DNA of 23,129 nucleotides from Elusimicrobiota bacterium (GTDB taxonomy: Bacteria > Elusimicrobiota > Elusimicrobia > F11). Positions 1-4,666 of the stretch are shown here, piece after piece (the first letter of the stretch is position 1; every line of letters starts with the position of its first letter). The notes beneath the pieces are model-generated. The model was not told the DNA's origin. It made no database searches and was given only the letters and a program-made list of their open reading frames with translations. The stretch is taken from the NCBI GenBank assembly GCA_046153645.1, contig JBJXGI010000025.1:1-23129 (forward strand), in the 5' to 3' direction. The position numbers were made by a program, and so were the translations under genes.

Positions 1-94
1 TCAAATAGAAGCGGTTTTGGAGAAAATGAGAATGGGGGTGCCTGGCCCTCACCCTAACCCTCTCCCGCAAGCGGGCGAGGGGAAAAGAGATTGA
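1..94 (+). CDS. 3' end of a gene truncated by the window edge; probable DUF559 / very-short-patch-repair-like endonuclease
   Basis: Frame 2 (nt 2-94) reads QIEAVLEKMRMGVPGPHPNPLPQAGEGKRD* (TGA 92-94). IEAVLEK resembles the C-terminal xEGVLExI helix of DUF559 proteins. The PHPNPLP..GEG tail is encoded by the boxC-like repeat. Only 30 codons are visible. Confidence 0.45.
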   Translation, partial: QIEAVLEKMRMGVPGPHPNPLPQAGEGKRD

Positions 95-150
95 TCCTTC
101 TTTTTAAAAAAATGTCCCCTCTCCCTCGGGGAGAGGGTCAGGGTGAGGGG
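46..150. repeat. Inverted pair of boxC-like GC-rich palindromic units (46-82 and 116-150)
   Basis: 46-82 is CCCTCACCCTAACCCTCTCCC-GCAAGC-GGGCGAGGGG. 116-150 is CCCCTCTCCC-TCG-GGGAGAGGGTCAGGGTGAGGGG, which is the same unit in reverse complement. A 33-nt AT-rich spacer separates them. Confidence 0.9.
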
Positions 151-232
151 TTCGTTGCGCGTTTGAAGCACCTGAAAAAATCCTTTTGACGAAGCATCTT
201 GCCTGTTTTTTCATTGGGGCGCCTTTTTTGCC

Positions 233-271
233 TTGAATAGGATGATTATTATGTTATATTAGACTGGTCTA
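233..271 (+). promoter_or_regulatory. Sigma70-type promoter and operator palindrome of TA operon 1
   Basis: TTGAAT (233-238), 16-nt spacer, extended -10 TGnTATATT (252-260). It is followed by TAGAC-tg-GTCTA (260-271), and TGGTCTA recurs just downstream. A GGGGGA SD precedes ATG 299. Confidence 0.6.
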
Positions 272-298
272 CAACTGGTTGGTCTATTTGGGGGATTT

Positions 299-559
299 AT
301 GACGATTTCAATTGGGGCATTTGAAGCCAAAGTTAAATTTAGTGAGCTTTTAGAAAAGGCGGCGGCCGGTGAAACTATTTTTATCACAAAACACGACCGG
401 CTTAAAGCGAAGCTTGTTCCTGCTGAAGATATCTGTGATGAAGATGGGTTAGAAAAAATCATTGAGGCCATGGAGCGGTTTCAAAAAGAAAATGTTCTAA
501 ATAAGCCCGGGCAGGACAATTTGACTCTTCGACAGATGATTGATGAAGGTCGAAAATGA
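299..559 (+). CDS. Type II antitoxin, Phd/YefM (prevent-host-death) family
   Basis: 86 aa. N-terminal motif IGAFEAKVKFSELLEKAAAGETIFITKHDRLKAKLVP. ATGA overlap with the PIN gene. Confidence 0.9.
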   Translation: MTISIGAFEAKVKFSELLEKAAAGETIFITKHDRLKAKLVPAEDICDEDGLEKIIEAMERFQKENVLNKPGQDNLTLRQMIDEGRK

Positions 560-975
560 GAAAACATATTGTTGTTGATTCCTCCCTTGTGCTTTCTTGG
601 TGCTTTCAAGACGAAAATTCTGATATTGCCAATCGTCTGAGGCGAGCCCTTATTAAAGATGTGATTCTTGTTGTTCCTTCACTTTGGTTACTTGAAATAT
701 CTAATGTTCTATTGGTTTCAGAAAGAAAGGGACGTATTTCTGAAGAAAAATCTCTCCAGTTTTTATCTTTTCTAAAAGAACTTCCGATCAATTTTGAAAT
801 TGAGGATATGGATCATGCTTTTTCCTCTGTTATTGGCTTTGCTAGAAAAGAAGGTTTATCAAGTTATAATGCCGCTTACCTTGAGCTCGCAGTTCGAAAG
901 GGGCTTCCGATTGCTACTTTAGATCAACAGATTCAAAAAGCCGCAACCAAGCTAGGTGTTGCGTTATTTTCTTAG
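556..975 (+). CDS. vapC: VapC-family PIN-domain toxin (third catalytic Asp replaced by Asn)
   Basis: VVDSS (D8), LLEISN (E47), LSSYNAAYLELA (N105 at the usual YDA position), ATLD (D123). Coupled to the upstream antitoxin. Confidence 0.9.
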   Translation: MRKHIVVDSSLVLSWCFQDENSDIANRLRRALIKDVILVVPSLWLLEISNVLLVSERKGRISEEKSLQFLSFLKELPINFEIEDMDHAFSSVIGFARKEGLSSYNAAYLELAVRKGLPIATLDQQIQKAATKLGVALFS

Positions 976-987
976 TAAAGTCTCTCT

Positions 988-1473
988 GTGGAAATTTATT
1001 TAATGCGGCACGCGGAAGCGGTGCCAGAATTTACTTGGGATGGGCCTGATAGTACTCGGCCTTTATCTAAACAGGGGAAAAAAGCGCTTATGGCTGCGGT
1101 TTCTTCTTTTGTAAAAGCAAACTTCCAACCTAAATGCATCGTTTACAGCACTCATGTTCGAACCACACAAACAGCTGAAATAATGAAGGGTATCGTTCCG
1201 GGAGTGTCTGTGTTTGCTCATTCAGAAATTGCCTCTGGAGCCCGAGTAGATAAATTTATTCAACTTATGCAGCAGTATAAATTAATGGCGCCCATTTTAT
1301 TTGTTGGTCATATGCCAGATGTGGCGATGGCAGCTGCTCGTCTCATTCCTGATCCCTATTTACTTGAAAAACGTTTTGAACCAGCCGAAATCATGGCTGT
1401 TAAGATCACGAACTGGGAAAACCCCTTAATGATGGGACAATTCTTATGGTCAAAAACCCTCAATCAATGGTAA
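988..1473 (+). CDS. sixA: Phosphohistidine phosphatase SixA (histidine phosphatase superfamily)
   Basis: GTG start. Motifs YLMRHAEA, RPLSKQG, S..VRT.QTAE and LFVGHMP. Confidence 0.88.
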   Translation: MEIYLMRHAEAVPEFTWDGPDSTRPLSKQGKKALMAAVSSFVKANFQPKCIVYSTHVRTTQTAEIMKGIVPGVSVFAHSEIASGARVDKFIQLMQQYKLMAPILFVGHMPDVAMAAARLIPDPYLLEKRFEPAEIMAVKITNWENPLMMGQFLWSKTLNQW

Positions 1474-2273
1474 GAGACTCGGTACCGGTTCTGAAGTGGA
1501 CACCTTTCAAAACCGATACCACTCTTAAAAACCAGTCCCCTCTCCCTTTGGGAGAGGGTCAGGGTGAGGGAAGAAGTGGGTGGGGAGCCCTCCTCACCCT
1601 AACCCTCTCCTCCCACTGTCGTGGGAGGAGAGGGGAAAGGAAAGATTCGCTTGTGTTTCAGGTGCTTATTTCCATCTTATTCATTTCATTTTTTCATCTT
1701 GTTTCTTTTTCGCAGGAAAACTCTCCGGCAGTTCAAACTCCTGGTCTTTTTGGGATGCCGGTGGGTTATGTTGTTGAGGGGAAAAGAAATGTTTTTATCT
1801 TGCGCGCTAAAAGTAAATTAGAGGCTTATAAAGGAGTCGCGGTTCATTGGGGCGACCAAATTATGACGGATTCAGCTTCTACTTGTCTCGTTGAATTTCC
1901 AAAACAGAAGGTAAAAATAAGACTGGGGCCTCATTCTCACTATGTCATTCCCGCATTTACTAAAAATACGCAGGTTCATAATTTAGAAGGAGGACTTCTT
2001 TGGATTTATAGAGAAGCTTCTCCACATCTATGGAGAATAAACACAAAATCTGCCATGCTTAGTTTTGGCGGAACAGATTTATTTTTAAAAAAAAGTAATG
2101 AAGATATTCAAATTGCTGTTCGAGCGGGTGATGTTTTGGTAAAAACAATGAACTTTGAGACAAGGTTGAAACCTTTTGCTTTATTTTCATACAAAGACAG
2201 TCAAATCCCCAGTATTCAAGGTTTAAGTAAAGACGATTTTCTCGATTGGGAGGAACCCTTTGAAAAATTCTGA
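1467..2273 (+). CDS. Secreted FecR-domain-like protein; start uncertain (ATG 1446, ATG 1467 or GTG 1653)
   Basis: Signal/TM segment VFQVLISILFISFFHLVSFS. FecR-like beta motifs GDQIMT, IRLGPHS, LEGGLLW, INTKSA..FGGTDL and IAVRAGDV. ATG 1467 overlaps the sixA stop. Confidence 0.65.
   Translation: MVRDSVPVLKWTPFKTDTTLKNQSPLPLGEGQGEGRSGWGALLTLTLSSHCRGRRGERKDSLVFQVLISILFISFFHLVSFSQENSPAVQTPGLFGMPVGYVVEGKRNVFILRAKSKLEAYKGVAVHWGDQIMTDSASTCLVEFPKQKVKIRLGPHSHYVIPAFTKNTQVHNLEGGLLWIYREASPHLWRINTKSAMLSFGGTDLFLKKSNEDIQIAVRAGDVLVKTMNFETRLKPFALFSYKDSQIPSIQGLSKDDFLDWEEPFEKF
1536..1636. repeat. 101-bp boxC-like composite palindrome (MITE/REPIN-like), copy A
   Basis: 10-bp terminal inverted repeat TCCCCTCTCC...GGAGAGGGGA. 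Hairpin 1 is CCCTCTCCC-ttt-GGGAGAGGG. Hairpin 2 is CCCTCTCCTCCCAC-tgtc-GTGGGAGGAGAGGG. 96/101 identical to 3047-3147, and about 64% GC by manual count. Confidence 0.93.
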
Positions 2274-3027
2274 ATCATTAATTCCCTCAGAAGCCTTAGA
2301 AGGATTAATGAAAAAAGCTTTTATAGAAAATGCCGCTCCTCCAGGGCTTTTTTGGGATGCGCTTATAAAAGCAAAACTATTTGTCCCTATTGATTCAAAA
2401 GAAAAAATTCAGCATAACGACGATTTGCCAGATCGATTGCCGATGCGCTTAGGTTTAGATTCCAAAGGACAATATATTGCTTGGGCGTTTACATCTCCTC
2501 AGGCGATGGTTAGTTATACTGAAAGCGATATGACTTTTCTTGGGATGCCGGCACAACTGTTATTAAAACGATTGCAATTCTTGGAATTTGACATGGTCTT
2601 GATTGGACCAGAAGGGTTAACTTTGGGTCTTGATTCTAAGTTGGTTGATAACTTGATTAAAGGTGAAGTTCCAGAAGCGCCTATTAGTGAAATTCGCAAT
2701 ATTCCTCAGGACGCTCAAATGTTGGTAGGGGCGCCAACAATTTCAACAGAAATGTTAGAAAAAAAATTGCTCACCCTTTTTTTGGAGTTGAAAGAAGTTG
2801 TTGCGGCGAGTTTTCTACAAATTCAAGATGATAAAGGGGATCGGTTGCTTTTGGGTTTAACTCTCTCAGATGAAAGTAAAGATGATTTACGCCGTGTTGC
2901 TTCTTATGTTGCTGGCGCCGCTGAAGGGGTCCTCGAAAAAGGGAACAGTATTGATATCACGCTTATCAATGGTTCTCTTAAAGCCGCCTTTGAGAAGTAT
3001 GGTAAGAATTTTTTTAAAAGAGATTAA
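2260..3027 (+). CDS. SseB family protein (SseB N- and C-terminal domains)
   Basis: Motifs FWDALIKAKLFVP and AWAFTSPQAM, then a C-terminal domain MLVGAP...EVVAASFLQ...LLLGL...SIDITL. The TTG start overlaps the upstream ORF. Confidence 0.7.
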   Translation: MKNSESLIPSEALEGLMKKAFIENAAPPGLFWDALIKAKLFVPIDSKEKIQHNDDLPDRLPMRLGLDSKGQYIAWAFTSPQAMVSYTESDMTFLGMPAQLLLKRLQFLEFDMVLIGPEGLTLGLDSKLVDNLIKGEVPEAPISEIRNIPQDAQMLVGAPTISTEMLEKKLLTLFLELKEVVAASFLQIQDDKGDRLLLGLTLSDESKDDLRRVASYVAGAAEGVLEKGNSIDITLINGSLKAAFEKYGKNFFKRD

Positions 3028-3046
3028 TTTGCAAGAAACAAGAGAA

Positions 3047-3147
3047 TCCCCTCTCCCTGAGGGAGAGGGTCAGGGTGAGGGAAGAAGTGTGCGGGGAGCC
3101 CTCCTCACCCTACCCCTCTCCTCCCACTGTCGTGGGAGGAGAGGGGA
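3047..3147. repeat. 101-bp boxC-like composite palindrome, copy B
   Basis: Same architecture as 1536-1636 with 5 substitutions. It ends 1 nt before ATG 3149. Confidence 0.93.
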
Positions 3148-3148
3148 T

Positions 3149-4666
3149 ATGAAACGGAGAATATTTTTTGGCTTATTGAGTTCTCTGTTGTTTTTTTTCT
3201 CATTTTTCATTCCTTGTTTTGCACATGCCAATCCCTTTGAAACGATCGTTAAGAAAGTTGAAAAAATAACTCTCAAAAATGGGATGCGAGTCCTTTTGGT
3301 TGAACGCCCTGATTCTCCCTCAATTTCATTTACCACTTATATTCGCACGGGTGGTGTGGATGATGAAATGGGGTTCTCGGGTCTCGCGCATATGTTTGAA
3401 CATATGTTATTTAAAGGAACCAAAACGATTGGAACGCGCGATTATCAAAAAGAAAAAAAGATTTTAGATGCAATGGATCTTGTTCAAGAAAAAATCCTTT
3501 TAGAGAAATCTCAAAAAGTACCCAACCAACAAATACTGGCGCAATATTCTGCAGAATTTAAGAAGTTAGAAGAGGCACACGAAAGTGTGTTGATTCGTCA
3601 AGAATTTTGGCAGATTTATGAACAAGCTGGCGGTGAAGGTCTTAATGCCAGCACCGGATATGACTTCACTAATTACAGAGTAACTCTTCCAAAAAACCAA
3701 TTAAAACTTTGGATGATTATGGAGTCAGATAGAATTTTAAATCCTGTTCTTCGAGAATTTTACAAAGAGCGCGATGTTATTATGGAAGAGCGCCGTCAAC
3801 GAACGGAGGCTTCTCCTCAAGGAAAATTATGGGAGCAATTTTTGGCCGCGGCCTATATAGCCCATCCCTATGGACGCCCTATTGTTGGGTGGGAAAGCGA
3901 TATTCATCGAATGCTTCGCCGAGACGCCGAACTTTTTTTTAGTAAACACTATGACATTAGTCGATTTGTTCTTGTGATTGTTGGCGGTTTTGAATCAGCC
4001 CAAGTTAAAACTTATTTAAAACAATATTTTGAAACTATTCCTTCGCGCTCTTCTTTACTCAATAATCGTGATCTGATTCCTGTCGAGCCTCCTCAAGAAG
4101 GGGAGCGAAGGGCCAAAGTGTTTTATGACGCGGAGCCTTCTGTTCTCATCGGTTTTCATGTCCCTTCAATAGGACATGCCGATGCAGCACCTCTTTATAT
4201 TCTTGGCGAATTATTTGATCAAGGAAGATTTTCTCTCTTTTATAGAAATCTAGTGGAAAAAAAGAAGGTGGCTGCTTCTGTTTGGGCGGGTTCTACAGCT
4301 CCTGGTGACCGGTATCCGAGCCTCTTCACGATTGGTGGATCTCCTCGATTTCCCTATACCAATGCGGATTTAGAAAAGGCCATTTATGAAGAGATAGAAA
4401 ATTTAAAGAAAACAGGCGCCTCTTTGGCTGACCTGAATCGAGTTAAAAACAATATTGAAGCTTCATTGGTTCGTGATTTGGTTTCTGATTCCGGGTTGGC
4501 TGATAATCTTGGTATTTTTGAGTGTTTAGCGGAGGATTGGAACACTTTGTTCCACTTCATTAATAAATTACGTGAAGTCACACCGCAGGACGTTAGTCGT
4601 GTTCTTTCGACCTATTTAATTGAGAAAAATAGAACGGTGGCCACTTTGGAGAGGGAGAAGAAATGA
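3149..4666 (+). CDS. M16 (pitrilysin/insulinase-like) zinc peptidase, catalytic subunit, secreted
   Basis: Inverted zinc motif HMFEH (GLAHMFEHMLFKGT), plus NASTGYDFTNY, ERDVIMEE and HPYGRPIVG. Signal peptide MKRRIFFGLL...FAHA starts from ATG 3149. Confidence 0.92.
   Translation: MKRRIFFGLLSSLLFFFSFFIPCFAHANPFETIVKKVEKITLKNGMRVLLVERPDSPSISFTTYIRTGGVDDEMGFSGLAHMFEHMLFKGTKTIGTRDYQKEKKILDAMDLVQEKILLEKSQKVPNQQILAQYSAEFKKLEEAHESVLIRQEFWQIYEQAGGEGLNASTGYDFTNYRVTLPKNQLKLWMIMESDRILNPVLREFYKERDVIMEERRQRTEASPQGKLWEQFLAAAYIAHPYGRPIVGWESDIHRMLRRDAELFFSKHYDISRFVLVIVGGFESAQVKTYLKQYFETIPSRSSLLNNRDLIPVEPPQEGERRAKVFYDAEPSVLIGFHVPSIGHADAAPLYILGELFDQGRFSLFYRNLVEKKKVAASVWAGSTAPGDRYPSLFTIGGSPRFPYTNADLEKAIYEEIENLKKTGASLADLNRVKNNIEASLVRDLVSDSGLADNLGIFECLAEDWNTLFHFINKLREVTPQDVSRVLSTYLIEKNRTVATLEREKK

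Follow-up and report, generated by a model that had tools for sequence, protein, structure and literature searches.

RAYT proteins are Y1 transposases that act through a covalent intermediate. Rickettsia palindromic elements (RPE) are palindromes inserted in frame in protein genes, those of housekeeping enzymes included. RAYT genes are flanked by inverted repetitive extragenic palindromic (REP) repeats (PMC3184786), and in the NTS-ssnA-NTS arrangement a small single-domain nuclease lies between hairpin repeats with asymmetric tails, with cognate pairing of the two and repeats genome-wide (PMC11893778). The boxC repeat of Escherichia coli, also termed PIT or the triplex motif (TM_ECO), has been without a known origin since the 1990s (Holder et al. 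2015, PMC4666352). The window analysed here is a stretch of 23,129 nt from an Elusimicrobiota bacterium, comprising the entire contig JBJXGI010000025.1 (C70) of a genome (G000) of 2.63 Mb in 105 contigs. It carries boxC-type repeat units beside a gene of the DUF559 family. Insertion of such units, and of the cassettes in which they bracket the gene, has occurred many times over, and the conserved protein, of Vsr fold, goes together with a cognate unit. Judged from sequence, the DUF559 enzyme is likely to be the agent that spreads the boxC-type repeats.

The repeat is assigned by sequence to the boxC/TM class and the protein to DUF559. The match to boxC, stated in a preliminary description of the window, is borne out: the first 21 nt of the first unit (46–66) are identical to the K-12 unit downstream of ycjD, with the TTA linker on the G-rich strand. 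Like the triplex motif, the unit occurs singly and as inverted pairs and is widely distributed (PMC4666352). By that report, the K-12 copies are intergenic only and have no transposase or integrase remnants nearby (PMC4666352), whereas here many copies lie in frame within genes and pairs bracket the nuclease gene. The words nuclease and ycjD are absent from the main text of the report, although its Table S2 of flanking genes may name ycjD (PMC4666352).

The placing of a small single-domain nuclease between tailed hairpin repeats, with cognate pairs and repeats throughout the genome, is shared with NTS-ssnA-NTS. The Ssn nuclease is a GIY-YIG enzyme with demonstrated cleavage (PMC11893778), whereas the present protein has the Vsr fold with cleavage only predicted, and a hairpin with a polypyrimidine tail makes up its repeat. 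G000 has three small GIY-YIG genes, none of them with such units alongside. As for RAYT, the gene is flanked by inverted repeats, here accompanied by gene-less inverted pairs and arrays, and as for REP/RAYT, REPIN and BIME elements no target duplication is seen. Unlike REP/RAYT, G000 has no PF01797 match and the unit lacks a GTAG-type lead. The fold and the spacing of the active-site residues are like those of Vsr, VsrA and I-Bth0305I (PMC3239194, PMC12907096), and the fold has been recruited once already for gene mobility, in the EDxHD homing endonuclease I-Bth0305I (PMC3239194). In contrast to I-Bth0305I and Vsr, there is no linked methylase among the named neighbours and no intron, intein or N-terminal DNA-binding domain, and insertion is at unrelated sites and not at a single allele. 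The units resemble the RPE as in-frame palindromes in protein genes, and differ from them in sequence and in the candidate enzyme attached. The system would work like REP-RAYT and NTS-SsnA but belongs to neither, with no Y1 gene and no GIY-YIG fold. What the window contributes is a cassette duplicated recently, the coexistence of two cognate pairs, derivatives without the gene at junctions that are empty in relatives, and repeated in-frame insertion. Titles and abstract openings of the open-licence literature gave no paper linking DUF559 to these repeats; the boxC papers of the 1990s lay outside that scope.

Structure of the cassette and its copies in the genome

Each repeat unit consists of a pyrimidine tail of 10 nt, followed by a short linker and then a G/C hairpin. 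The units of the window and the associated gene are arranged as follows:

2–94, plus strand: 3′ end of the DUF559 / Vsr-fold nuclease gene (30 codons), cut by the contig start
30–150, no strand: right-hand direct-repeat composite, comprising a 16-nt lead, unit A, an A/T spacer and convergent unit B (by alignment)
46–84, plus strand: unit A, pyrimidine tail plus G/C hairpin of boxC/TM type, pointing away from the gene
115–149, minus strand: unit B, a second tail-plus-hairpin unit on the opposite strand
1536–1636, no strand: gene-less divergent pair between sixA and a FecR-like gene, with a 20-nt spacer where the gene would be
3047–3147, no strand: second gene-less divergent pair, between sseB and an M16 peptidase gene

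The reading frame entering the window reads QIEAVLEK...PHPNPLPQAGEGKRD and ends with a stop codon at 92–94, its last codons being encoded by the repeat unit. It had been taken for a probable DUF559 endonuclease gene, and its assignment to DUF559 is now confirmed. The 30-aa fragment alone gave no match in Pfam; it is assigned to DUF559 through window positions 1–95, a run of 95 nt that recurs without a difference in the intact copy of contig C98, which matches PF04480 with E 4.5e-40 and 137 bits (curated cut-off 20.6). The upstream sequence and the repeat sought on the 5′ side of the gene were found at the start of contig C62, where a left composite occurs together with 80 nt from the leader and the beginning of the same gene. 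Since the cassette starts on C62, and the giant gene of that contig is found just upstream of sixA in 4 of the 11 syntenic loci that come from relatives (members of other genera in the family), C62 and C70 most likely form one locus broken at a second copy of the cassette. Between the parts of the gene on the two contigs, 259 nt are unassembled.

In both A-type copies (C98 and C62 + C70) the gene lies between direct-repeat composites that start 16 nt before unit A, so that the units next to the gene face outward. From the lead onward, the composite at 30–150 aligns with the left composites of C62 and C98 and with the right composite of C98. The cassette is roughly 0.6 kb in size and the protein about 124 aa. 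G000 has six DUF559 sites, two of A type and four of B type, all of them bracketed. The A- and B-type subfamilies of the protein are 47% identical, and each B-type gene lies between inverted copies of a unit variant that differs from that of the A type. The B-type gene of C79 is intact, that of C86 has two stops, that of C87 has an internal deletion, and C31 holds a remnant. A 194-nt stretch from the end of the neighbouring gene is present on both sides of the decayed C86 cassette (C86:10300-11600), the two copies being 94% identical. Units form tandem arrays at the right end of C98 and in genomes G008 and G032.

Four DNA sequencing runs, all from a single study, also yielded fragmentary contigs. 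In one X1 contig, of depth 4, a C62-type composite passes straight into window 150–359, as in a gene-less allele; this is only a hint of such an allele, for 44 shared nt may permit an assembly jump. In one X2 contig a C62-type composite continues into 345 other letters.

Separately, a two-gene module with a ParE-type toxin is found between direct B-type units at C74:23850-24510 (L152). The module has a trailer matching the one behind the C79 DUF559 gene and a leader similar to those of B-type DUF559 genes, a picture that suggests a passenger in place of the nuclease.

Abundance and arrangement of the units

A generic tail-plus-hairpin detector gave 68 raw matches in the genome (some overlapping, a few false), compared with 1 and 2 in two 6-mer-block shuffles. 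The abundance of the unit is thus far above chance. The elements of the window have folding z-scores of −5.2 to −6.9, and in all six window units the tail is a mirror image of the hairpin arm, as a third strand needs, the detector allowing no more than 2 mismatches in 8. A search of window 1–3300 against Rfam gave sub-threshold hairpin matches only, and so no known RNA family.

Matches to the unit number 41 on 21 contigs of G000, with six in the window and eight adjoining an A-type DUF559 gene. The positions given earlier for the three elements of the window (46–150, 1536–1636 and 3047–3147) are correct, and beyond about 3160 neither the unit search nor the detector found any unit, in agreement with the preliminary description. 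Its claim of clustering stands in part. Three elements do lie within 3.2 kb, and the post-hoc Poisson P for two extra elements at ≤3.2 kb from a cassette is about 0.008; the appearance is, however, partly an effect of the window, given 41 matches on 21 contigs. The suggestion that the repeats spread mainly locally is not upheld, the majority of copies being far from any DUF559 gene.

Nor are the three elements alike. That at 46–150 is a convergent pair with hairpins inward, while the other two are divergent pairs with hairpins outward. The latter are 96/101 identical and free of target-site duplication, as already noted, and have 10-bp inverted termini and a 20-nt spacer. The units of 1536–1636 have the same polarity as those bracketing DUF559. 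A classical MITE (a transposable element of the miniature inverted-repeat kind) was considered and rejected; terminal inverted repeats are present, a target-site duplication is not.

The purine-rich end of the element at 3047–3147 is just upstream of the likely start codon of the M16 peptidase gene at 3149. In both gene-less elements the purine-rich right end (window 3137–3151 and 1630–1655) comes shortly before the probable start of the gene behind it, for which it may act as ribosome-binding site. That gene's reading frame is, moreover, open through the element in either case.

Insertion at gene junctions and within genes

Little or no sequence separates sseB from the M16 gene in 6 of the relatives' 11 syntenic loci, and sixA and sseB are ≤33 nt apart in 6 of the 11. 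No A-type unit was found at the sixA–sseB or sseB–M16 junctions of the relatives, so the empty orthologous sites that the preliminary description had proposed to look for do exist. A nucleotide-exact empty site was sought and none was found, there being no same-genus relative among those searched. Elsewhere, the Azospirillum records all have the gene, the Sinorhizobium record that is shorter owes this to a deletion, and the divergence of Shinella is too great. Different inserts are found at these junctions in the relatives, comprising another unit pair at the M16 start in one and an unrelated hairpin repeat there in one, and a B-type unit behind the giant gene in one; the junctions therefore take insertions repeatedly. 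No target-site duplication was found in the flanks of the window elements or of the B-type cassettes.

Single units insert too. Of 30 other unit loci of G000 that were examined, 21 are in frame in long open reading frames (ORFs), one of which may precede the true start. The genes concerned include an Ile-type tRNA ligase, a CoaB-like gene, an AIRS-family gene and dihydroorotate dehydrogenase. Whole DUF559 cassettes lie in frame in large methylase-like genes (L066, L070, L075, L082, L068, L079, L086, L093, L094 and L103; the proteins were named by eye from motifs), and the same genes carry further lone units.

Within a family of 44 giant proteins, 10 of 40 parsed copies have units in one loop, of both types and in both orientations (two regular-expression positives were discarded by eye). 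The loop units are scattered on the tree, with nine changes of which at least five are forced by strong branches and no clustering relative to shuffles, and this scatter points to repeated insertion.

The loop lies in an N-terminal domain shared by the 44 giant ORFs (e.g. on C29, C38 and C86), and two to three more copies have another hairpin repeat there. The much longer remainder of these genes has few units, for which tolerance and target preference are both possible explanations.

The DUF559 protein

The model of the C98 protein has a predicted local distance difference test (pLDDT) score of 90.9. Foldseek matched it to 3hrl (E 2.5e-9), 3r3p (E 3.8e-4) and 1vsr (E 0.028), and the predicted fold thus matches those of 3hrl, I-Bth0305I and Vsr. 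E17, D46, D59 and H63 are invariant or nearly so, while D46, E57, D59 and H63 are invariant in 50 sequences. The spacing of E17, D46, D59 and H63 is that of the four predicted active-site residues of VsrA (PMC12907096). The ratio of nonsynonymous to synonymous substitution (dN/dS) is 0.04–0.18 in 8 of 15 pairs, two paralogous G000 copies included; the other 7 of the 15 are saturated.

Two assignments for the protein were not upheld. It does not classify as a Vsr repair endonuclease proper: the TIGR00632 (vsr) profile gave 18 bits for one copy, against a cut-off of 98, and no match for the other, and the 31 named ORFs of 48 flanking ones (17 unnamed) include no methylase and no transposase. The C5 methylases of G000 are on other contigs, C25 and C52. 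It is likewise not an EDxHD homing endonuclease, given its length of about 124 aa and the 25 different addresses among 26 loci.

Association of units with DUF559 genes in other genomes

The class sample comprised 25 DUF559 loci found by profile, three of them from G000, with weak or partial PF04480 matches (L013, L014, L032-L036 and L042) omitted. In 19 of 23 scored DUF559 loci of the class, outward units were found on both sides by a strict detector. The co-occurrence of DUF559 and repeat across phyla, raised as a possibility earlier, is indeed seen in GTDB loci and in samples of two other phyla. Among the GTDB loci, from many phyla, units lie 5′ of the gene in 48/77, 3′ in 66/80 and on both sides in 43/77; the query contained the repeat-coded tail, which biases the 3′ count, and 14 of the 80 loci are enterobacterial kin. 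Unbiased samples of the two other phyla (strict detector, three edge loci omitted) had units on both sides in 12/29 and 5/28. Many of the misses carry variant units by eye, some with a hairpin in the linker.

Units are concentrated around the gene, their density there being about 17 to over 60 times that found >600 nt away. The counts are 174 in 34 kb near the gene and 15 in 126 kb beyond, and in the other samples 58 in 16 kb against 11 in 52 kb, and 38 in 15 kb against 2 in 51 kb. By genome, units were found in 17 of 18 with a full-length gene and in 5 of 23 without; the genomes and loci include kin and are not independent, so that permutation and Fisher values overstate.

The units of one cassette are more similar to each other (0.71) than are those of different cassettes (0.52), and the partner from the same cassette ranks first in 25 of 62 cases. 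Unit similarity also tracks protein identity (Mantel rho 0.37). Only one pair of the 26 loci has common flanks. In genome G045 two closely similar cassettes (L240 and L241) are at unrelated sites; the two remain homologous for about 30 nt past their hairpins, as far as an outer inverted repeat some 20 nt long. As 62 of the 101 forks of a quick DUF559 tree are open, no donor or order of events is claimed.

At L174:1540-1700 and several other loci, the units that flank alphaproteobacterial DUF559 genes contain a further hairpin within the linker. These linker-hairpin units resemble rhizobial RIME repeats and may be the same family.

ycjD and boxC in E. coli

The E. coli gene ycjD is a DUF559 gene. 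In K-12 a full unit lies about 170 nt downstream of it, and none is visible on the 5′ side. The earlier statement that ycjD ends in a similar repeat-derived tail is right as to origin, but the tail is short (SPSP) and comes from a degenerate unit. The unit of the window has blastn matches in 4334 of 5426 E. coli genomes, none spanning 80% of the element. Triplex formation has been shown in vitro for E. coli oligonucleotides only and is not supported in vivo; polymerase is blocked by the motif in vitro, and loci marked by it are unstable (PMC4666352). Nuclear magnetic resonance (NMR) of the E. coli motif gave a triplex (PMC4666352), which disfavours the G-quadruplex substrate entertained in the preliminary description.

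For the ycjD–fabI region (L144:2663-2745 in K-12), 2080 of the 5426 E. coli genomes lack 80% cover of the 1.2-kb region in one place, and those sampled break off just past the boxC unit.

Proposed mechanism and alternative explanations

We regard as evenly balanced the proposal that DUF559 nuclease and hairpin form a mobile system, in which the nuclease would recognise and nick its own repeat, and repair and recombination by the host would place copies of the cassette, and of derivatives that lack the gene, at new sites. As substrate we envisage the folded single strand that replication or repair would lay bare. The free end left by a nick next to the hairpin would prime strand displacement or invade elsewhere, and the gene would be gained or lost when the direct-repeat composites recombine. 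Of the elements at 1536 and 3047, both taken to be non-autonomous products, one would be a local copy of the other. Nicking and repair of this kind would explain the tandem arrays, the direct-repeat flanks and the lack of target duplications. The broader claim, that DUF559/YcjD is the mobiliser of boxC and represents a third independently evolved hairpin-repeat system after REP-RAYT and NTS-Ssn, is advanced tentatively, with the balance tilted against it. A stand-alone Vsr-fold nickase would then read folded, possibly triple-stranded DNA, and would spread itself, gene-less repeats, in-frame protein inserts and passenger genes without a transposase.

The proposal joins two orphans of E. coli, the boxC/triplex repeat and ycjD. 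If true, it would make available a nuclease of some 120 residues able to recognise a single strand with structure, whose natural variants go with different repeats, and a route of mobility that needs no transposase. It would also account for the Pro/Gly-rich inserts that many bacterial proteins carry and for the reports of genome instability near the motif, and give another reading of the Caulobacter VsrA phenotype.

Several points weigh against an active nuclease-driven system. Vsr-fold enzymes hydrolyse DNA, and no strand-transfer step is known for this fold. The window's own DUF559 copy, with its middle 259 nt unassembled, may not be intact. Three transposase families were searched for, and one DDE transposase (DDE_Tnp_1) is present in G000. 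Outside this class only the smaller part of the loci are strictly bracketed, and one phylum has six in-frame loci of the opposite polarity. Five genomes have 2–21 exact units with no DUF559 gene detected. In the enterobacteria the gene is at one address, with 3′ units only. The bias of the GTDB query and the kinship within the samples, described above, belong here too.

It is unlikely, in our estimate, that the nuclease recognises the repeat but serves the host like SsnA in Neisseria, trimming single-stranded DNA and tuning recombination, with copying as a side effect or a thing of the past. The repeat–gene–repeat layout and cognate pairing do match NTS-ssnA-NTS (PMC11893778), and the enterobacterial gene has a fixed address and is under purifying selection; yet six copies at unrelated sites, three of them decayed, and in-frame insertion in methylase-like genes fit a mobile element better. 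Rather less probable is that an ordinary transposase acts in trans on a MITE whose ends the repeats form, with DUF559 as cargo. This would accommodate the 10-bp inverted termini of the gene-less pairs, the outer inverted repeats of about 20 nt beyond the hairpins of the two G045 cassettes, the ParE-type module bracketed by direct B-type units on C74 and the presence of one DDE transposase. Against this, there is no target duplication and no outer inverted repeat in G000, no ISL3 or Y1 gene and no transposase among the 31 named flanking ORFs; single units insert too, and a cargo gene has no reason to track the type of repeat.

Spread with no dedicated enzyme at all, where the folded motif stalls replication and is propagated by slippage or host recombination, the gene having been captured once, we hold to be very unlikely. 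It draws on the polymerase block in vitro and the instability of loci with the motif (PMC4666352), on the tandem arrays and direct-repeat flanks, on the persistence of units without the gene, and on a microhomology deletion that joins gene and unit in one Sinorhizobium record. It leaves unexplained why one catalytically conserved nuclease family under purifying selection is bracketed across many phyla. There is little probability that DUF559 is a very-short-patch T:G mismatch repair nuclease to which the repeats are incidental or mark its transfer. Its modelled Vsr fold, the genetic interaction of the Caulobacter DUF559 protein VsrA with an unlinked cytosine methylase (PMC12907096) and the C5 methylases on C25 and C52 would be consistent with such a role. 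Nevertheless no methylase is found among the named neighbours, TIGR00632 scores 18 bits against 98 for one copy and gives none for the other, and six bracketed copies are not needed for repair; the repair role is itself presented as a hypothesis in the source (PMC12907096).

Neighbouring features

Searches of G000 gave no gene for a Y1/RAYT (PF01797) or ISL3 (PF01610) transposase, and ISL3 parentage was rejected for want of a PF01610 gene. Two further features of the window adjoin the elements:

299–975, plus strand: Phd/PIN toxin–antitoxin pair directly 3′ of the cassette (PF02604, PF01850)
1653–2273, plus strand: FecR-like gene after the second element (PF04773, E 2.2e-5; start codon inferred)

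Neither phd/PIN nor fecR was found in the 11 syntenic loci of relatives. The Phd/PIN pair is probably a separate insertion and not part of the cassette. The site behind the giant gene is an insertion hot spot, occupied by Phd/PIN here and by other inserts of 1.2–1.8 kb in two relatives (L055 and L062). Elsewhere in the genome, small GIY-YIG genes at C66:2942-3154 and C71:36714-36920 lie just behind tRNA-like genes, as judged by eye. That of C71 has one stop and is followed by a partial tRNA duplicate.

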